A stretch of DNA of 64,000 nucleotides, taken from the sequence record MZ311865.1; one strand, given 5' to 3'. The notes under the pieces are model-generated. The model did no database searches and was not told the origin of the DNA. It saw nothing but the letters and a program-made list of their open reading frames with translations. Positions 14,598-62,965 of this stretch are shown here, in pieces. The first letter of the stretch is position 1, and every line of letters begins with the position of its first letter. Source of the stretch: Escherichia phage vB_EcoM_LNA2. A program made the position numbers and the translations under genes.

Positions 14598-14609
14598 AAT
14601 TTCCTCAGT

Positions 14610-14625
14610 GGGAGCCGAAGCTCCC
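14610..14625 (-). terminator. UUCG-tetraloop hairpin
   Basis: GGGAGC-cgaa-GCTCCC on plus strand. Confidence 0.55.
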
Positions 14626-14632
14626 AGTTAAA

Positions 14633-14998
14633 TTAGATATCGAATTCATTAAGAACTACATCAAAGATTGCTTCGAGATGTTCAGGTTTAGCTCGATGAC
14701 TCAGGATATGACGAATCCAAGTTTTAACCAGAAGTTTACGATTAACACCGTTCCAGCAAGGATGGGTACCTAAATCACGTTGACGGAAATCGTCATCTAA
14801 AGCGATTTTAAAAGTAGAACCTTCCATCGTGATTGAAACCGTGATGCCATTTTCAAATCGCATATAAACGTAATTAGGAGTCATGCACTGTTCGATTTCA
14901 CAAACTGTACCGTTTTCATGTTTCCATAAGCAAATAACTTCAGAAGAACCAGCGATACCGTTAGAAACATATCTGCGTTCGAAGTTGATGTAGTTCAT
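14633..14998 (-). CDS. hypothetical protein (30.7-like position)
   Basis: 121-aa ORF. Confidence 0.45.
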   Translation of the reverse strand: MNYINFERRYVSNGIAGSSEVICLWKHENGTVCEIEQCMTPNYVYMRFENGITVSITMEGSTFKIALDDDFRQRDLGTHPCWNGVNRKLLVKTWIRHILSHRAKPEHLEAIFDVVLNEFDI

Positions 14999-30475: not shown

Positions 30476-30504
30476 ATACTAACACATCCAGGGAAGAAGT
30501 AAAC
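30476..30504 (-). promoter_or_regulatory. early-type promoter cassette
   Basis: Minus-strand GTTTAC-17nt-TAGTAT upstream of ORF 30054..30446. Confidence 0.45.
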
Positions 30505-55628: not shown

Positions 55629-57444
55629 AGGACATCCATTCTTTACGAAGTTCTGAATCATCACCCATCAACATTTCAAAGAGTTCTTTCCAATTTTCAG
55701 GAAGTTTAACTACGTCGTACACAGGGTTCTGAATCATTTCACGATATTCTGACTTTTCAAGGGAGCCTAATCCCTTGATGTATCGAATACTGTGCTTAGG
55801 CAGTGTATCTTTAACTTCTTCGTACTCAGCCACAGTATAAAACCATTTTTGAGTTTTGCCAATTTGTGCAATAATTACAGGCGTTTTAACAAAGCGAATA
55901 CGTCCTTGTTCAAACAATTCAGGCCAATTACTAAAGAAAGCAAGCAAAGCCGGATAGATACTTCCAAGACCGTCATGATCGGCATCGGTCATAATTGCAA
56001 TATTACGATAGTTCGTATTCTCTGCCTTTTCACCAAGAATAAGACCCGTGATAGCACAGATATCAAAGAGCTCTTTGTTCTTCATCATATCAGCATATGA
56101 CATACCCCAGCTATTCATCACCTTACCACGTAATGGGAATCCACCGTGTAGTTCACGGTCACGAACATCAATGAGATAACCAATTGCCGAATCACCTTCT
56201 GTTAAGAACAATGTCGTATCTGCATCTTTACCGCATTGGTTAGCTTTAATATGCTTATGAACCTTAGCTTTAGTTGCCTTTTTAGCTGCTTTAGTTTCTG
56301 CAGCCTTTTCTGCTGCCAATTTACGAGCTAATGCTGCTTCAACAATAGGCATAATCAAGGCTTCGTTTTTAAGAAGTGCCTGAGCAATTTTCTTAGCATC
56401 TAATTGGATATGATTACGAATATCACCATACGTTGACGTTAAACGTTCTTTAGTCTGAGAATCAAAACGCATGTTGCTCATGTCTCTAATAAACATCAAC
56501 ATTGTGAGACATTCTTTAACACGAGCTTTAGTGACTTCAATACCCTTATATTTCTTTTTAATACCAGGCAAAAGATGTTCGCAGATATCATCCATTACAC
56601 ATTCAACATGATGACCACCATTTTTAGTATGGATGTTATTCACGTAAGTTAAATGACGGAAGCCATCTGGTGATGTTGTGAATGCCATAGAGACTCTATC
56701 GTTTTCTTGAATGATGTTATCTTCGCCAAATTGTTTAGCAAATCGTTTAAAATTACCATCAACCTTTTTACCATTAAATGTGAACTTGATATCAGGATAA
56801 ACGACTGCCAATGTTTGAAGTCGGTCTAAAGTAATATCTAAATAAATTTGAGATAAATTATGCTCTTCAAATGAAGAGAAATCAGGAGTGAAGATTACTT
56901 TAGTGCCTTTACCTTTAGATTTCTTAGAAGACCATGATTTGTTTTCCATTCCGTTTGAACAGTTAACAGTGATTTCATTTTCGCCATCTGACGTGATGCC
57001 TGTAAACAACGTAGAGAAGATATTAGTTAAACTACTCCCGACGCCGTTCATACCACCAGTCTTGCGTTCAGAGTCATCACCAAAGTTACCACCAGCCTTT
57101 GGAATAGTCCAGGCTGCTACAGGCCCAGGAATTTGTTCACCTGTTTGGTCGGTAACTAAACCTTGAGGAATACCACGTCCGTTATCTTCCACTGAGACTT
57201 GATTATTTTTAATTTGCACATCGATTTTATTTGCAAACTTAAATGATGTACGAATAGCTTCATCAACCGAGTTGTCAATAATCTCATCGATTAATTTAAC
57301 CAGACCAGGAACATATTCAACTTGTTGATATTTGCCAAACAAAAAACGCTCATGTGCTTCTTTAGCAGAAGAACCAATATACATACCACTACGTTTCTTA
57401 ATATGTTCTACATCTGACAATACCTTAATTTCATTTTTAATCAT
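55627..57444 (-). CDS. 39: DNA topoisomerase II large subunit gp39 (unsplit 39+60 form)
   Basis: 605-aa single ORF with GHKL ATPase/Toprim-type features; no separate gene 60 and no inserted homing endonuclease. Confidence 0.9.
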   Translation of the reverse strand: MIKNEIKVLSDVEHIKKRSGMYIGSSAKEAHERFLFGKYQQVEYVPGLVKLIDEIIDNSVDEAIRTSFKFANKIDVQIKNNQVSVEDNGRGIPQGLVTDQTGEQIPGPVAAWTIPKAGGNFGDDSERKTGGMNGVGSSLTNIFSTLFTGITSDGENEITVNCSNGMENKSWSSKKSKGKGTKVIFTPDFSSFEEHNLSQIYLDITLDRLQTLAVVYPDIKFTFNGKKVDGNFKRFAKQFGEDNIIQENDRVSMAFTTSPDGFRHLTYVNNIHTKNGGHHVECVMDDICEHLLPGIKKKYKGIEVTKARVKECLTMLMFIRDMSNMRFDSQTKERLTSTYGDIRNHIQLDAKKIAQALLKNEALIMPIVEAALARKLAAEKAAETKAAKKATKAKVHKHIKANQCGKDADTTLFLTEGDSAIGYLIDVRDRELHGGFPLRGKVMNSWGMSYADMMKNKELFDICAITGLILGEKAENTNYRNIAIMTDADHDGLGSIYPALLAFFSNWPELFEQGRIRFVKTPVIIAQIGKTQKWFYTVAEYEEVKDTLPKHSIRYIKGLGSLEKSEYREMIQNPVYDVVKLPENWKELFEMLMGDDSELRKEWMS

Positions 57445-57495
57445 GTTGTCTCCTCGTTATGAAGGTATTCTATCATCCGAAATCTAAAGCAAAAA

Positions 57496-57507
57496 GGGCC
57501 GAAGCCC
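57496..57507 (-). terminator. short UUCG-tetraloop hairpin upstream of gene 39
   Basis: GGGC-cgaa-GCCC on plus strand. Confidence 0.4.
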
Positions 57508-57951
57508 TTATTTAAATTTAATTTTCTGAAGTGCATCAATTGCAGCTAAACGCCCTTGTTCACTTTTAACTGTAATGACCACATCGCCTGATACGATCAC
57601 CGAACCATCAACAAATTCTATAGAGCCTTTTTTGAAATCGACAGCTGTATCTGGTTCCGGAACTTCTTCAAAGAATTTAAATTCTGCACCATAAATCAGA
57701 ATATCACCTTGCATACTAATGATTGTACGTCTAGGTCCATCGGTTTCAGCGGCAATCATTGAAACACCATAACCAATCATCTCTTCTACAATAAAATCTC
57801 TTGATAATAAAACTGTATGCAGAGTAGTGTTAAGACGTTTACCAGTTGTATTAAGAATTCTCAAGAAATTATCTTCTTGACCTTTGATAATACGATATTT
57901 CTTACCAACTTCAAAACCTTTAAAACCTTTAAAAGCCGTATTAAAAGCCAT
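57508..57951 (-). CDS. hypothetical protein
   Basis: 147-aa ORF, TAATTATG junction with the upstream zinc-ribbon ORF. Confidence 0.45.
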   Translation of the reverse strand: MAFNTAFKGFKGFEVGKKYRIIKGQEDNFLRILNTTGKRLNTTLHTVLLSRDFIVEEMIGYGVSMIAAETDGPRRTIISMQGDILIYGAEFKFFEEVPEPDTAVDFKKGSIEFVDGSVIVSGDVVITVKSEQGRLAAIDALQKIKFK

Positions 57952-57953
57952 AA

Positions 57954-58133
57954 TTAACCCTTCTTAAGTAAGTCGTAAAAACCACCGTTCACATGTTTAG
58001 GAGCAGAAACCCGACGAGTAGACAGACGATGACATTCAGGGCAAACATCGTTTTCTCGTTCAGAAATCCTTTTAATTTTTTCATATTCATGACCACAATC
58101 TTCAGATTGACATTTATAGTCGTATAACGGCAT
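57954..58133 (-). CDS. small zinc-ribbon protein (FmdB-like CxxC...CxxC), 59 aa (missed by ORF track)
   Basis: Hand translation: [59 protein letters not shown]; two CxxC pairs; TAATG overlap with the upstream ORF. Confidence 0.55.
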   Translation of the reverse strand: MPLYDYKCQSEDCGHEYEKIKRISERENDVCPECHRLSTRRVSAPKHVNGGFYDLLKKG

Positions 58134-58564
58134 TATTGTTCCTTAAAGTGAGCTTTCAACATTTGATACAAAGACCATGCCTGGTCGTTATTTTCGATAG
58201 TAATCGTCATCACCGGAAATTCAGACAATTCATCAAGTTCACCAGAATCTTGCTCTTCAGACTCTTGATACGGATTTCCAACTTCGTCAAAGAACTCTGC
58301 TTCATTCGTGGAGAGCCAGATAAAGTTTTCATCAAGGATGTCACCGCCTGTTGCGTATCCAACCATGCCAGTAGATGTCACAATTTTAGTAGGACGACCA
58401 AGATGGTCAACATCTAATATTTTAAATGGTTCCATGCCAAGACGTCGTGCGTAAATCCCATTATCAGTGTGGTCTTTAATAAACTCTTCTTGGGCACGTT
58501 TATCTTTAAATTGGTACCATGAGTTAACGCGGAATTTATTAGCCATTAGTAAGTTTCCTTCCAA
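58133..58564 (-). CDS. hypothetical acidic protein
   Basis: 143-aa ORF. Confidence 0.45.
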
Positions 58565-58773
58565 TAAGTTGTACCATTTTCAGTGATTTCACGGAAGATA
58601 CCATAGATAGGCATTTCGTCACCGAGTTTTTCGTAAACGTAAACCACTTCAGTGTAGCATAAAAATTCAGTCCAGTTTTTCTGTACAACAACTAAATCAG
58701 GATTAAACAGAACATCTTCAAACTCATCGATGTTTGAATCAGTAGTTACGTTTTTAATGATTTGACGTTTCAT
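58546..58773 (-). CDS. hypothetical protein
   Basis: Track ORF 58546..58818 trimmed to internal ATG at 58771-58773 preceded by GAGGAG (75 aa). Confidence 0.4.
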
Positions 58774-58801
58774 AATATTCTCCTCTTGTTTTGATAGGTC
58801 T

Positions 58802-58830
58802 ATAGTATCATAGACCATAGTTGTTGTACA
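58802..58830 (-). promoter_or_regulatory. early-type promoter cassette with hairpin around -10
   Basis: Minus-strand TGTACA-17nt-TACTAT; palindrome GGTCTAT..ATAGACC around the -10. Confidence 0.45.
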
Positions 58831-59355
58831 TCATTTTAGCAAAATAAAATCAACTTGTTCTGCCAATGAACGTCTGAACATTAATTGACAACTTCCGAGG
58901 ATGAAATCAGGTGCTTCATAGACCGCGATGTAGTATCCTTTAGCTTTCAAGAGTTCAACATCCACCTGGTCATCAAACCATGCATAAACCGCGTCAACAC
59001 TTTCAAATCCAAAATAGAACTCTTGAGCCCAATCTTCGCTCAATTCAAATGTGTGCTCAATTCTATAGTATCTTAAGATATTTTGTTCAAGGAGTTTGTC
59101 TTCATTTACTGTAGGACGATTAGGGACATTATAGTTGTCGCCATGATGGTAGAAGTTACCTGAGAGTATTCCATGCTTATCAAGGAACTCCCATGTTTCT
59201 TCAGAGTTGTCGGTGCCCGACCAACCGTATGGCGAACGAGGTTCTTTATTCCAAGAGGTTTCCCAAATTCTGACGGCTTTACCGTCTTCAATAGCAATTC
59301 CTGGTAATGATTCACGTTGAGTACAAAAACTACGTTCTACGCGGTAAACTAACAT
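58831..59355 (-). CDS. hypothetical protein
   Basis: 174-aa ORF; RBS GAGGAGAA. Confidence 0.45.
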   Translation of the reverse strand: MLVYRVERSFCTQRESLPGIAIEDGKAVRIWETSWNKEPRSPYGWSGTDNSEETWEFLDKHGILSGNFYHHGDNYNVPNRPTVNEDKLLEQNILRYYRIEHTFELSEDWAQEFYFGFESVDAVYAWFDDQVDVELLKAKGYYIAVYEAPDFILGSCQLMFRRSLAEQVDFILLK

Positions 59356-59381
59356 ATTATTCTCCTCTGGTTGATATGGTT

Positions 59382-59410
59382 ATAATATCAAAACCAGAGG
59401 AGAAGTAAAC
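59382..59410 (-). promoter_or_regulatory. early-type promoter cassette with 13-bp hairpin enclosing -10 and pairing with the downstream RBS
   Basis: Minus-strand GTTTAC-17nt-TATTAT; inverted repeat TTCTCCTCTGGTT (59360-59372) / AACCAGAGGAGAA (59391-59403). Confidence 0.5.
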
Positions 59411-59414
59411 AACT

Positions 59415-59834
59415 TTATGCAAAAGATGCTGGACAATATTTTTTGATTTGGAACTCAGGAACTACCATGAACTGTCCAGCAAAAACAATGTTATAAAGCT
59501 TGACTCCATCTTCAACCCATTGGTCACTGATGAACCCAGCGACTTGATTCGTTGTCCACGGTGTTCCATCTGTCGCAGAGGCAATGGTGAACTTGTGGTC
59601 TTTTACAACTAAAACCGATCTGCACAGTTTCCATTTGAACGCTTTTTCTTCCGGTTCAATGAATTGGCTTTTAACGTAACCAATGTTACCATCGGCGTCA
59701 CGAACTTTAACTTCGTTACGTCCAAAAACAGGATCACTCACATAAAGAACTTCAACCAACTTCCCGGCAACTTTAGAGCGAGAAGCATCCGATACGTGTA
59801 CATAATCACCAATAGAGAGATTTGCAATATTCAT
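59415..59834 (-). CDS. hypothetical protein, paralog family member 1
   Basis: 139 aa; C-terminal GFISDQWVEDGVKLYNIVFAGQF block shared with the two upstream ORFs. Confidence 0.5.
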   Translation of the reverse strand: MNIANLSIGDYVHVSDASRSKVAGKLVEVLYVSDPVFGRNEVKVRDADGNIGYVKSQFIEPEEKAFKWKLCRSVLVVKDHKFTIASATDGTPWTTNQVAGFISDQWVEDGVKLYNIVFAGQFMVVPEFQIKKYCPASFA

Positions 59835-59843
59835 AATAATTCC

Positions 59844-60341
59844 TTAAGCTTTACGAGGAGACACATAGCGAGTGATTTCAGATTCTTCAACAACTCGGAA
59901 GTCACCTAAGAATACAATATTGTATAGCTTTTTACCATCTTCAACCCATTGGTCGCTGATGAAGCCGCACATAGTATCAGTTTTGCTTGGATAACCGTAT
60001 TCGTCGATGTAATCAAATTCTTTATCGGTTATAAATTCAACGCCTTTGCAAAGGGCCCATTTGAACTGTGTAGTAGGCTCAACGATATCGCTTGAAGCAA
60101 AGTGTGCAGGTGCAACTTCTTCGCTTGAAGCAAATTGGACTCGTATATGTTTTTCCAGGAATTTAGGACTTACGTAAGCATACTGGGCATCTTGTCCGCC
60201 AAAACTGGGGATGATTCGAACTTTAACTTCTTTAACACGTCCCATGCCGTTAGTACGAAGCCCTGCTACTTCAACCAGACGACCTGCAGCTTTAGAACGA
60301 GAAGCAGGAGATACACGAAGGATTTCACCAATAGTAATCAT
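59844..60341 (-). CDS. hypothetical protein, paralog family member 2
   Basis: Track ORF 59844..60404 trimmed to internal ATG at 60339-60341 (MITIGEILRV..., 165 aa); C-terminal GFISDQWVEDGKKLYNIVFLGDF. Confidence 0.5.
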   Translation of the reverse strand: MITIGEILRVSPASRSKAAGRLVEVAGLRTNGMGRVKEVKVRIIPSFGGQDAQYAYVSPKFLEKHIRVQFASSEEVAPAHFASSDIVEPTTQFKWALCKGVEFITDKEFDYIDEYGYPSKTDTMCGFISDQWVEDGKKLYNIVFLGDFRVVEESEITRYVSPRKA

Positions 60342-60371
60342 ATTTTTTCTCTCTTTGTTTAAGTTGAATTC

Positions 60372-60402
60372 ATTATACTCCATCCATCCTTGGATGTAAA
60401 AC
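60372..60402 (-). promoter_or_regulatory. early-type promoter cassette
   Basis: Minus-strand GTTTTAC-18nt-TATAAT with CATCC..GGATG stem in the spacer. Confidence 0.45.
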
Positions 60403-60403
60403 A

Positions 60404-60898
60404 TTAATTAAGAATATTAACTACTGCACTACGTGGAACAACACTAAAATCACCAGCATGAACAACGTTAATAAGTTCAACACCATCTTCAATCCACTGG
60501 TCAGTTACCCATCCACTCACTGGACCTGCGAACGGACGTCGAATTGAAACGGCTTTACACAACAAATCAGTAGGCTCAATAGGCTTAATCAGAGTACCGT
60601 ACATACAAGCGATGTCCATATCAAAGTGGAGACCATCTTTAACAGGTGCTTCTTCAATCAAGAGTTCAAAGTCGGTGCTCGGAAGGGCAGTAGTAGAAAT
60701 TGTACCGTATGAATTTTTAATTTCTAAGAATAACCAAGGGCCTTCAACTTGTTTGATGAAGTTAACAATAGTGAAACTATTACCTTGAGTGGCACCTAAA
60801 ATTTCACAAAACTTTTCATAAGCTCGCACTGAAGCACCGTACCAATTGATTTGTTTTTCGTCTTTCAGGATGTAAGTAGCCGTAGTATTGATATTCAT
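60404..60898 (-). CDS. hypothetical protein, paralog family member 3
   Basis: 164 aa; C-terminal GWVTDQWIEDGVELINVVHAGDF, divergent copy of the same domain. Confidence 0.5.
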   Translation of the reverse strand: MNINTTATYILKDEKQINWYGASVRAYEKFCEILGATQGNSFTIVNFIKQVEGPWLFLEIKNSYGTISTTALPSTDFELLIEEAPVKDGLHFDMDIACMYGTLIKPIEPTDLLCKAVSIRRPFAGPVSGWVTDQWIEDGVELINVVHAGDFSVVPRSAVVNILN

Positions 60899-60929
60899 AA
60901 TGTTTTTCCTGTTTGGTTAAGATAGAAAG

Positions 60930-60959
60930 ATTATACTCCAACCATCCTTGGTTGTAAAC
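60930..60959 (-). promoter_or_regulatory. early-type promoter cassette
   Basis: Minus-strand GTTTAC-18nt-TATAAT with CCAAGG-centred stem in the spacer. Confidence 0.5.
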
Positions 60960-60964
60960 TGCTT

Positions 60965-61642
60965 TTATCGCTGTTTTACACTTAACGGGTCAGGATTCTC
61001 AGGGACATCTTCAAGGCCAAGCGCATAACGCTGAGCATATTTTAACATCAAAATATCTTTAGCACAATCATGAATACTATCATGGGCAACGAATCCTTTT
61101 AGCGTACCCATCGGTAATGGACACATACTTAATCCTCGTGTCAACGAGTAAGCTTCGATTGCTGTACGAATATCACGTTGAGCCCAGAATTTAACCGGTT
61201 CTAATTTATCAGTATCAATATCTGGTTCAAGAACACCTTCATCACGATAGAGGTCACGAATCAAATCGACCAAGATTGGGAAGTCAAAGCTCATACCACG
61301 GCACCACATCTGTGATTTCCATTGGTCAACTTTATTAGCTCGACAATAATCTAAAAAGATTTTAATGCCTTCAAGCGTAGTGACATCGTCTTCAGACGGA
61401 GCCAAGTTTTTACGCGCTTCAGCAGATTGTTCTTTCCACCATTTCATAGTGGATTTAGCGAAAACTCGCTTCCCTTTCTGAGAAGCTAAATTAAATTTAA
61501 TTCGCTTACCTCGTTGAACAAGGTCTTCAAATGATTCAACAACTTCTGGGTCGGAATTATATGCAATAACCGCAAGGTCAATAACAGCCGCTTTTGATGT
61601 ATTGCCGAATGTTTCAAAATCTATAATAACATCAGTGCTCAT
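60965..61642 (-). CDS. dexA: exonuclease A (DEDD/DnaQ-like 3'-5' exonuclease)
   Basis: 225 aa (T4 DexA 227 aa); N-terminal IIDFETFG Exo I motif; adjacent to dda. Confidence 0.8.
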   Translation of the reverse strand: MSTDVIIDFETFGNTSKAAVIDLAVIAYNSDPEVVESFEDLVQRGKRIKFNLASQKGKRVFAKSTMKWWKEQSAEARKNLAPSEDDVTTLEGIKIFLDYCRANKVDQWKSQMWCRGMSFDFPILVDLIRDLYRDEGVLEPDIDTDKLEPVKFWAQRDIRTAIEAYSLTRGLSMCPLPMGTLKGFVAHDSIHDCAKDILMLKYAQRYALGLEDVPENPDPLSVKQR

Positions 61643-61651
61643 AATTTTCTC

Positions 61652-62965
61652 TCAAATAAAATGGACGTCAAACCGGCCACGAGTTGTGCCGACATACAAT
61701 AACTGTTTAGCTAATTCTGAATCGGCATAATGGATACACGGTGTATAAACAAAGGCCGTGTCAACAGACATACCCTGAGCCTTATGGAAGGTTGATACTG
61801 GTAGTGCCTTCACCTTAGTGAACATACGTTTAGCATCCCAGAATTCGCTCCATGGAGCTTTACCACCTTTATTCCAGAATTTGTATGTTTCTGCTGTCTT
61901 AGCCAAAAACAAATTGAATTTATAAAGCTCTTCTTCAGAAGAAATAACCTTTATATCTTCACGGATGTATTCTTCATCATCCCCATATGTTTCTACTGTA
62001 AGATTCCAGTATCGTATCATATATTCGCCTGAAACACCACGTGCTTTAACGAATGTAGACGTTTCTACAGCATCTCGAATACGAACGAATTGCCCATTAT
62101 TGAAAAGCATTTCGGTCATATTTTTACCGTCTAGCTTATATGTCTTAGTAAATGGCTCTTGTAGAACAATGACTTCGTCTTTAATAAATGGTTTTTCTGT
62201 TTCAAGAAGTTTTCGGCGAATAATTGAATTTAACTTGTCCACCGACTTATTTGTGAATGCCATCATTCGATTTTCGAAAAGGTCTTCAGGAGTTTTAACG
62301 ACGTTAAAATAGTTCATCATATACGATTTAAGGTCTGTATATCCATGAACACCGTGTCCATCAACTACTTTATCGTAAATCCATTTGCCATTACGAATAT
62401 CAGTCGCAACATCAATAATTGGTGCATTACTACGTTTAACTTCTGTAAGGTTGCATTGCACGAAGTCTTTGTGAGTGAAGAAAGGACTTAGATACGCAGT
62501 TGATTCGCCTGGGTCTACCGGTCGAATTTGACATCGGTCGCCGATTCCAATTACTGTGCACCATTTAGGGATACTAGCTAACATTATTTTAAACAGAGAA
62601 CGGTCGCACATTGACGCTTCATCAAATAACAGTACACGACACAAGGCTAAGTCGGGAACCTTTTTCTGTTCAAACAATACGTTTTCTTCGTATGTAGTTG
62701 GGTTGATTTTAAGAATGCTATGAATAGTCGATGCTTCTTGACCTGCAAGTTTGCTTAGAACCTTTTTAGCAGCATGTGTAGGGGCTGCTAAAATAATACC
62801 TGATTCTCCAGAAGAAATAAGGGCTTCAACGATGAATCTAGTAAGGGTTGTTTTACCTGTACCAGCAGGTCCATTAATAGTTACATGATGTTTCTTTTCT
62901 TTAATAGCTTCCATAACAACGTTGAAGGCGTTTTTCTGGCCTTCAGTCAAATCATCAAATGTCAT
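61652..62965 (-). CDS. dda: Dda DNA helicase (SF1B)
   Basis: 437 aa (T4 Dda 439 aa); Walker A GPAGTGKT, Walker B LLFDEASM, C-terminal VGTTRGR. Confidence 0.9.
   Translation of the reverse strand: MTFDDLTEGQKNAFNVVMEAIKEKKHHVTINGPAGTGKTTLTRFIVEALISSGESGIILAAPTHAAKKVLSKLAGQEASTIHSILKINPTTYEENVLFEQKKVPDLALCRVLLFDEASMCDRSLFKIMLASIPKWCTVIGIGDRCQIRPVDPGESTAYLSPFFTHKDFVQCNLTEVKRSNAPIIDVATDIRNGKWIYDKVVDGHGVHGYTDLKSYMMNYFNVVKTPEDLFENRMMAFTNKSVDKLNSIIRRKLLETEKPFIKDEVIVLQEPFTKTYKLDGKNMTEMLFNNGQFVRIRDAVETSTFVKARGVSGEYMIRYWNLTVETYGDDEEYIREDIKVISSEEELYKFNLFLAKTAETYKFWNKGGKAPWSEFWDAKRMFTKVKALPVSTFHKAQGMSVDTAFVYTPCIHYADSELAKQLLYVGTTRGRFDVHFI

Follow-up and report, generated by a model that had tools for sequence, protein, structure and literature searches.

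In the 64,000-nucleotide stretch of Escherichia phage vB_EcoM_LNA2 DNA analyzed here (record MZ311865.1; the window), a hairpin that joins an early promoter to the ribosome-binding site of a motB.2 homologue probably serves as a promoter-embedded, RNA-level gate on the translation of this gene. Transcripts from upstream early promoters, and from any later read-through, would carry both arms of the hairpin, and the resulting interrupted helix of about 18 bp would bury the Shine-Dalgarno (SD) sequence of motB.2 and prevent initiation at this gene. The embedded early promoter would start transcription past the 5' arm and yield a short-leader mRNA, whose SD would be free, translated at once and open to the phage endoribonuclease RegB. 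Every step of this model that can be tested in silico, namely the promoter, the upstream sources of RNA, the burial of the SD, the conserved pairing and the calibration on phage T4, is supported by the results described below.

The core of the element is a perfect inverted repeat, located at 59360-59372 (TTCTCCTCTGGTT) and 59392-59404 (AACCAGAGGAGAA), whose 13-nucleotide arms are 100% complementary and separated by 19 nucleotides. It is the sole perfect inverted repeat of at least 13 bp with a loop of 3-40 nucleotides in the window, where 100 first-order Markov simulations of the window give a mean expectation of 0.06. A first-pass annotation of this DNA had recognized the perfect 13-bp repeat and placed its second arm one base off, at 59391-59403. 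Because all surrounding genes lie on the minus strand, the element has to be read on that strand, where it runs ...TAA AGTT GTTTAC TTCTCCTCTGGTTTTGA TATTAT AACCAT A TC AACCAGAGGAGAA TAAT ATG. The minus-strand positions fit the initial proposal that one arm lies in the promoter spacer and the other carries the ribosome-binding site for open reading frame (ORF) 58831-59355. The features of the element and of its immediate surroundings are:

59405-59410, minus strand: GTTTAC, serving as the -35 hexamer in a T4-type early (sigma-70) promoter, with A-rich CATAAAGTT before it (consensus scan).
59392-59404, minus strand: 5' hairpin arm UUCUCCUCUGGUU, the anti-SD, which makes up the first 13 nucleotides of the 17-nucleotide promoter spacer (repeat search, folding, covariation).
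59382-59390, minus strand: extended -10 element (TGA + TATTAT) in the hairpin interior, with TGn at 59390-59388 and TATTAT at 59387-59382 (promoter scan, folding).
59375, minus strand: predicted transcription start, an A at the 7th base past the -10 hexamer (promoter geometry).
59360-59372, minus strand: 3' hairpin arm AACCAGAGGAGAA with the SD sequence GAGGAG, GGAG core at 59365-59362 (sequence, folding).
59355-59365, minus strand: predicted RegB site, when single-stranded, GGAGAAUAAUA (10/11 against the consensus GGAGRAYARAA; PMC1702504).
58831-59355, minus strand: motB.2 homologue of 174 amino acids without Pfam domain, ATG at 59355-59353, the gene proposed as gated (the RB69 record names it motB.2).
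59415-59834, minus strand: upstream MotB-like ORF, stop codon TAA at 59417-59415, 10 nucleotides ahead of the 5' arm (ORF calls).
60372-60401, minus strand: upstream early promoter TTTTAC N18 TATAAT, an expected source of read-through (consensus scan).
60930-60959, minus strand: second upstream early promoter GTTTAC N18 TATAAT, an expected source of read-through (consensus scan).

GTTTAC is the characteristic -35 hexamer of T4-type early promoters. The embedded promoter, GTTTAC-N17-TGnTATTAT, was found independently by the consensus scan, and a homologous cassette of the T4 group carries the annotation 'predicted early promoter' in the record of Yersinia phage fPS-90. The GGAG core ends 6 nucleotides ahead of the motB.2 ATG. 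The predicted start (about 59375) lies downstream of the entire 5' arm, and RNA begun there lacks this arm. This predicted start is located 2-3 nucleotides ahead of the SD arm, within the loop or the inner helix, and not inside the stem as originally assumed.

Folding of the 55-nucleotide core RNA gave 12 outer pairs, a 2-nucleotide bulge, 6 inner pairs (UGAUAU, 59390-59385, with AUAUCA, 59377-59372) and a 7-nucleotide loop at -23.9 kcal/mol, a structure longer than the 13-bp stem recognized at first. The z-score of this core is -7.3, and none of 200 dinucleotide shuffles folded equally well. In a 121-nucleotide read-through RNA the hairpin is kept in both the minimum free energy and the centroid structure (-29.9 kcal/mol, z = -4.5), whereas the SD is unstructured in the local 46-nucleotide RNA that begins at 59375 (-2.4 kcal/mol, z = +0.9). 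Expressed as the free energy required to make positions -15 to -4 single-stranded, opening of the motB.2 SD costs 19.5 kcal/mol in the read-through RNA and 1.0 kcal/mol in the promoter-proximal RNA. The first-pass annotation had predicted that read-through transcripts bury the ribosome-binding site and local transcripts free it, and had named the folding of the two RNA species as a check; in silico, the prediction is borne out. When 81 candidate gene starts across the window are compared, the value of 19.5 kcal/mol ranks first (median of all 3.4, 95th percentile 9.5). According to work reportedly published by de Smit and van Duin in 1990, translation falls about tenfold with each 1.4 kcal/mol of added hairpin stability.

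Read-through RNA is expected because two strong early promoters, with -35 hexamers at 60959 and 60401 and 11 of 12 consensus positions each, lie upstream and because the terminator scan reported nothing resembling a terminator on the way from these promoters to the hairpin. Given the footprint of a ribosome, one that terminates on the upstream ORF should melt only the base of the stem, since the stop codon is 10 nucleotides before the 5' arm. An Rfam scan of 57000-62000 (E <= 1) returned nothing at or above the gathering threshold; a Y_RNA match elsewhere in that range reached 24.7 bits against a gathering threshold of 38.

The measure of SD opening was calibrated on 141 annotated genes of phage T4 (positions 1-78000). 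It finds what is known, because the sites with experimentally established sequestration rank near the top (49, 15.1; e, 13.7; I-TevII, 11.1; segB, 10.7 kcal/mol). Five T4 genes that are closely preceded by a GTTTAC early promoter also reach high values, namely 17.6 for regB, 16.8 for nrdC.8, 15.5 for modB, 12.3 for motB.2 and 11.2 kcal/mol for denV, and in promoter-started RNA the cost for these five genes drops to 3.3 kcal/mol or less. In regB, nrdC.8, motB.2 and denV the 5' strand is located in the promoter spacer, as in the window. The sequences before ipIII, ipII, denV and orf61.9 were reportedly described by Valerie and co-workers in 1986 as able to form stable stem-loops. Further SDs of T4 (AF158101) that are costly to open in read-through RNA are those of modB (start 13130, 15.5 kcal/mol), gene 55 (start 40157, 12.1) and e.8 (start 70623, 9.4), all of them absent from the list of sequestered sites given in review (PMC3014915). 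For modB, the RNA is known to form a structure that blocks RegB in vitro (Durand et al., PMC1702504).

Early-promoter cassettes are repeated elements. The minus strand of the window holds 18 convincing ones, many of them with stems, and related cassettes are found ahead of motB.2, regB, cef and other ORFs in different phages. The SD is sequestered in only one of these 18 and in about five of 30 promoter-proximal genes in T4, and the remaining cassettes of the window require 6.7 kcal/mol or less to open the SD, bar one artefact of start-codon choice. Sequestration is tied to particular genes, such as motB.2 and regB, and not to cassettes in general, contrary to the initial idea that it is a built-in property of the promoter cassette. 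Many other cassettes (-35 at 60959, 50173, 49661, 30054, 21197, 19071, 15068 and 8160) have a different stem-loop around the -10 element, for example AGGACTATgaTATAGTAGTCCT; these bracketing stems leave the SD free (6.7 kcal/mol or less) and have a PeSL-like anatomy, which is discussed below. Two cassettes, whose -35 hexamers are at 30504 and 15512, have spacers that open with weak anti-SD runs (TTCTTCC and TCTCCTG; 5.2 and 2.7 kcal/mol, respectively) and show only poor pairing to their SDs, and the 5' half of the latter is similar to the T4 denV cassette. Decay or recombination of a gated cassette may have given rise to these two.

Comparative sequences came mostly from phage records in GenBank, to which IMG/VR added 3 near-identical loci from a protein-based search and 13 stretches from a pattern scan. 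Upstream of motB.2, the pairing is kept in every lineage examined while the part of the stem outside the SD varies, and in Mosigvirus, Tequatrovirus (T4 itself) and Dhakavirus compensatory changes preserve the design:

Inner stem CTGGTT / AACCAG: this window, four near-identical relatives and RB69.
Inner stem CTAG / CTAG: Mosigvirus ESCO47.
Inner stem CATG / CATG: Dhakavirus (VR5, ESCO10, CUA3 and IMG/VR contigs).
17-bp stem UCCUCGGU.AGUUGUGGU / ACCAUAGCUACUGAGGA with three G.U pairs (CGGTTAG.../...CTACTG): T4, AR1, T6 and fPS-90.

The T4 MotB.2 protein is only about 33-35% identical to that of the window, yet the hairpin design is common to both, and it is found behind different neighbors, which are dexA in T4, Dhakavirus, PEi20 and PM2 and a motB paralogue in the window. 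The geometry is altered in two further genera, represented by Edwardsiella phage PEi20 and Pectobacterium phage PM2, where the 5' strand is shifted just past the -10 element (GACCTCCT...AGGAGGTC), with the SD still as its partner and the predicted start inside the 5' strand. The same spacer/SD design precedes regB in T4, Mosigvirus CEV1, Av-05 and Gelderlandvirus CGG4-1, cef in phage F2 and two further ORFs in IMG/VR contigs, one of which has the inner stem CTTTTC/GAAAAG. A similar cassette in Klebsiella phage Roth34 has a PeSL-type stem only. The Av-05 record (NC_025830, 109677-110335), classed in the Vequintavirinae (Avunavirus), holds a regB gene with a cassette identical to the Mosigvirus one, and its classification or assembly looks odd.

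Two quantitative tests address the pairing. Cognate 5' and 3' halves pair with an average of -20.7 kcal/mol compared to -13.8 kcal/mol for non-cognate halves, and in 11 of 15 cases no other partner scores better than the cognate one. In a MAFFT alignment of 14 distinct cassettes, two rows of which are out of register, 82.4% of the cells are paired versus 74.7 +/- 1.8% in shuffles (reached by 0/500), and the covariation score is 0.210 versus 0.109 +/- 0.023 when shuffled (0/500) and at most 0.065 with the partners slid by 1-3 columns. Within Mosigvirus, the sole arm substitution seen is a C->U change in AV109 that leaves a G.U pair in place; in HX01 and RB69 the differences are confined to the loop.

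These data bear on an alternative in which the complementarity has no selected function and is a by-product of cassette duplication and recombination, with purine-rich SDs facing pyrimidine-rich spacers. Much sequence is indeed shared between cassettes (GTTTACTTCTCCTC..., ...TATCAAC...GAGGAGAA), which look mosaic, and the degenerate anti-SD spacers at 30504 and 15512 are in line with such an origin. At least five different inner stems, each self-complementary, a covariation above both the shuffle and the slide controls, the persistence of the design down to about 33% protein identity and across a change of upstream neighbor, and the retention of a G.U pair by the only arm mutation seen make this explanation quite improbable. 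Even less probable, to the point of being very hard to sustain, is a role at the DNA level, either as a palindromic operator where a dimeric protein binds and turns the promoter off, or as a cruciform. It would account for a perfect inverted repeat around a -10 element, and the shut-off of T4 early promoters is described as not fully understood (PMC3014915, PMC2988021). The arm centers, however, lie some 32 bp from each other, an uncommon spacing in operators, and several homologues use G.U pairs, which are mismatches in DNA or on the other strand. The pairing is assigned to the coding-sense RNA because G.U pairs work only there, and RNA pairing is favored over a conserved protein-recognition sequence because the arms differ between lineages while their complementarity is kept.

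A close anatomical precedent is provided by the PeSL (promoter-early stem-loop) cassettes known from T4-type phages (Arbiol et al., 2010, PMC2839356; Comeau et al., 2014, PMC4122927). Like the element described here, whose 5' arm is in the spacer and whose hairpin encloses the -10 element, they consist of an AT-rich region, an early promoter, a stem-loop between -35 and -10 or over the -10 element, an SD and a start codon, and they are scattered over plastic early regions and bear signs of having recombined with each other. Their stems have been read as terminators or attenuators and as recombination sites, whereas here the 3' strand is the SD and there is no terminator signature. The hairpin at motB.2 could chiefly attenuate or terminate transcription, thereby insulating the upstream unit, and offer homology for modular gene shuffling, with an incidental pairing to the SD. 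This is an unlikely account, for which several points can be made. In PeSLs, an early promoter and stem-loop are followed by SD and start codon, the stem often lies between -35 and -10 or over the -10 element, and terminator activity has been shown for a PeSL of RB49 (PMC2839356, PMC4122927). Stems surround the -10 element in many other cassettes of the window, the equivalent repeat before T4 regB is annotated 'pot. transcription terminator' in X04567, and cassette halves seem to have been exchanged, as the cef cassettes of the window and F2 have the same 3' half and different 5' halves. Against it, the element has no U-tract, its arms are 19 nucleotides apart and the minus-strand terminator scan is empty at the hairpin; the SD stays the partner even where the 5' arm moves (PEi20, PM2), and the stem extensions beside the SD covary. 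A pure terminator would need no SD, and the other PeSL-like stems of the window leave theirs free. Within the family of cassettes, functions in termination or recombination are plausible, and they are compatible with the gate.

A classical intrinsic (Rho-independent) terminator was considered separately and rejected, as the minus-strand scan reports nothing at the hairpin and the tail is UAAUAUGU, with no U-run. With regard to the exchange of halves, the cef cassette of the window (58819-58880, minus strand) shares the 3' half TACTATAGACCTATCAAAACAAGAGGAGAATATTATG with the cef cassette of F2, and its 5' half is unrelated to the anti-SD 5' half GTTTACTTCTCCTCTAG of the latter. Judged from these two sequences, this looks like recombination inside the loop, by which SD sequestration may be created or destroyed.

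A further layer is added by RegB, whose target must be single-stranded and which is inhibited by structure (Durand et al., 2006, PMC1702504). In vivo, just two GGAU sites are cut, and the SD of T4 motB.2 is one of them (PMC1702504). Like known RegB/S1 sites (PMC1702504), the window site combines GGAG and an A-rich tail at the SD of an early gene; unlike them, it is predicted from sequence, and cleavage has been shown for the T4 motB.2 orthologue. Folding leaves GGAGAAUAAUA single-stranded only in the promoter-proximal RNA. A hairpin of the same design is present at the regB gene, whose own SD is known to be a target of RegB. In the long RNA, RegB, which needs a single-stranded GGAG, could not cut the motB.2 SD, and the long RNA would be neither translated at motB.2 nor cut there, while the short mRNA would be translated and then inactivated by RegB. 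The combined outcome of RegB and hairpin is likely to be a short pulse of synthesis, and MotB.2 would be made only from its own immediate-early promoter.

The same observations could be turned around, with the hairpin acting primarily as a RegB shield or RNA stabilizer that hides GGAG in the long RNA or leaves a protective 3' hairpin on the upstream message. The polycistronic RNA for cef, goF and 39.x would thereby be kept intact, and silencing of motB.2 would be secondary. The match of the SD to the RegB/S1 consensus (10/11), the in vivo cleavage of the T4 motB.2 SD together with the requirement of RegB for a single strand (PMC1702504), and the presence of the design before regB, whose own SD is a target, speak for this possibility. 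It conflicts with T4 denV, which has the design though its SD is reported to be RegB-resistant for sequence reasons (PMC1702504), and with PEi20 and PM2, in which AGGAGGTC is followed by ATATG and not by an A-rich RegB context. As the primary function, a shield is unlikely; it is not exclusive of the gate, because one and the same helix blocks 30S subunits and RegB.

The analysis shows the anatomy of the element, the energetic difference between the two RNA forms, the conserved and covarying pairing and the sequence match to the RegB site. For the gate itself, we infer where transcription starts, that read-through RNA exists and folds in vivo, that translation is affected and what follows for timing. 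Because the embedded promoter belongs to the early class, the timing would be the mirror image of that of T4 gene e, with synthesis confined to the immediate-early burst and not delayed to the late phase. The first-pass annotation had invoked the logic of gene e, of which the principle of a helix with an embedded promoter is supported in silico and the early-versus-late timing would be reversed.

Several points weigh against a translational gate. Its support is wholly computational, with 5' ends, structure and translation all predicted. Sequestration is unnecessary for cassette function, since only one of the 18 cassettes has it. Judged from this window, the temporal benefit of discriminating two kinds of early RNA is not obvious, because the visible upstream promoters are also of the early class and the stretch from 59.4 to 64 kb yielded no MotA-box middle promoter. 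The scan for middle and late promoters returned a single MotA-box promoter, at 57491 and thus downstream of the element, and no TATAAATA on the minus strand between 55 and 64 kb. In addition, a structure that blocks RegB in vitro failed to do so in vivo in motB-GGAC and modB RNA, for which Durand et al. offer cleavage of nascent RNA as a possible reason (PMC1702504); by analogy, co-transcriptional events could weaken the gate likewise. Finally, MotB.2 has no known function, so that the physiological rationale is uncheckable.

Sequestration of an SD by a hairpin is well known from T4. As in gene e (and also soc, 49 and I-TevI/I-TevII), the SD would be sequestered in RNA from a distal promoter, and the transcript of the embedded promoter would lack the 5' strand and be translated (McPheeters et al., 1986, as reviewed in PMC3014915). 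The gene e hairpin cuts lysozyme synthesis about 100-fold (Uzan and Miller review, PMC3014915), and by the same metric the stability found here is comparable or greater (19.5 vs 13.7 kcal/mol). The two systems differ in that the embedded promoter of gene e is a late one, TATAAATA, and that of motB.2 an early sigma-70 promoter, GTTTAC/TATTAT; moreover, the 5' strand here is the -35/-10 spacer, and the predicted outcome is immediate-early restriction and not late postponement. For mobE of Aeromonas phage Aeh1 and T4 segB, translation from longer transcripts is likewise limited by a hairpin that covers the SD (Gibb and Edgell, 2009, cited in PMC3014915), but these are homing endonuclease genes and the hairpin is not in an early-promoter spacer.

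Close relatives are found among T4 early genes. The cassettes of T4 motB.2, nrdC.8 and denV have the same architecture, and T4 motB.2 is the orthologous locus. In the repeat D/D' of T4 regB (ORF 61.9; X04567, Valerie et al., 1986), D follows the -35 hexamer, the -10 element lies between the arms and the ribosome-binding site is inside D'; its arm sequences differ from those of the window, and it is annotated only as 'put. stem-loop structure; pot. transcription terminator'. A translational role for the regB hairpin is mentioned in neither the X04567 annotation nor the 2010 T4 reviews, which report sequestration of the ribosome-binding site only for e, soc, 49, I-TevI and some homing endonuclease genes (PMC3014915). 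The terms 'sequester', 'translation' and 'ribosome binding' do not occur in PMC2839356, and PMC4122927 is likewise without discussion of translation. No statement that an early-promoter spacer serves as anti-SD was found in the accessible literature, a scope that does not extend to the 2003 T4 genome review (PMC150520) and older print. Hence, the anatomy is within that of the described PeSL elements and of the T4 stem-loops annotated in 1986, and the principle of an RBS-sequestering helix with an embedded promoter is T4 textbook knowledge, in reviews for late promoters only; the early promoter and the use of its spacer as anti-SD are the new part. The finding is well supported comparatively and mechanistically unsurprising. 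Whether it extends to a distinct, conserved and dual-coded class of T4-family early promoters, in which the spacer is an anti-SD and both translation and RegB cleavage of regB, motB.2, nrdC.8, denV and modB-like genes depend on the origin of the transcript, is a more tentative matter, for which the odds fall slightly short of even.

The genome belongs to an RB69-like Mosigvirus (Straboviridae), and the region 58500-60500 is closest to Escherichia phage UGJNEcP1 (98.8% identity, megablast). On the minus strand, the order of transcription is dda, dexA, three MotB-like paralogues, motB.2, cef and, further downstream, the topoisomerase subunit gp39. The neighboring genes are:

61652-62965, minus strand: dda.
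60965-61642, minus strand: dexA.
60404-60898, 59844-60341/60404 and 59415-59834, minus strand: three MotB-like paralogues.
58546-58818, minus strand: cef.

The tandem MotB-like paralogues (59415-60898) share a C-terminal ...DQW(V/I)EDG...(F/V)(V/L)(A/H)G(D/Q)F...V motif. In T4, motB.2 directly follows dexA and here it follows motB paralogues; the promoter-hairpin cassette stayed with motB.2. The -10 element of the early promoter at 60377-60372 lies inside the longest ORF 59844-60404 and inside the 175-amino-acid start annotated in UGJNEcP1, and the protein read from the ATG at 60341 matches the Pfam motB model from its first residue on. This ATG is probably the true start of the ORF, and its related records are likely over-extended. 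A search for regB in the 64-kb window did not find the gene, which is encoded by Mosigvirus relatives.

Three other structured sites were noted in the window. The repeat 1998-2009 / 2033-2044 (ATAGAAGCAATA) is its only other perfect inverted repeat of at least 12 bp with a short loop. At the gene start 14597 (minus strand, about 14600-14640), a GGGAGC-UUCG-GCUCCC tetraloop hairpin lies immediately ahead of the SD, with an opening cost of 14.3 kcal/mol, and probably acts as an intergenic terminator or stabilizer that also abuts the ribosome site. Two divergent genes 47 nucleotides apart (about 1476, minus, and about 1524, plus) have TATAAATA late motifs between CTCCTT and AAGGAG, and in longer RNAs each SD can pair with the antisense of the other's SD (9.0 and 11.2 kcal/mol), a geometry of the gene e type.

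If the gate exists, it would be an early-phase counterpart to the late-gene translational switch of T4, in which a promoter spacer doubles as a regulatory RNA strand and the translation of a gene and its exposure to RegB are tied to the promoter of the transcript. A subset of PeSL stem-loops would thereby obtain a functional reading, and RNA-seq coverage of such genes would be no predictor of protein output. The element of about 55 nucleotides would also be a compact natural part for promoter-specific translation in synthetic constructs. For the phage, it would represent a testable contribution to the rapid shut-off of certain early proteins, RegB included, and would bear on RegB autoregulation. 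Together with RegB, a gate that responds to the origin of the transcript would help to explain why some early proteins abruptly cease to be made despite continuing read-through transcription of their genes.

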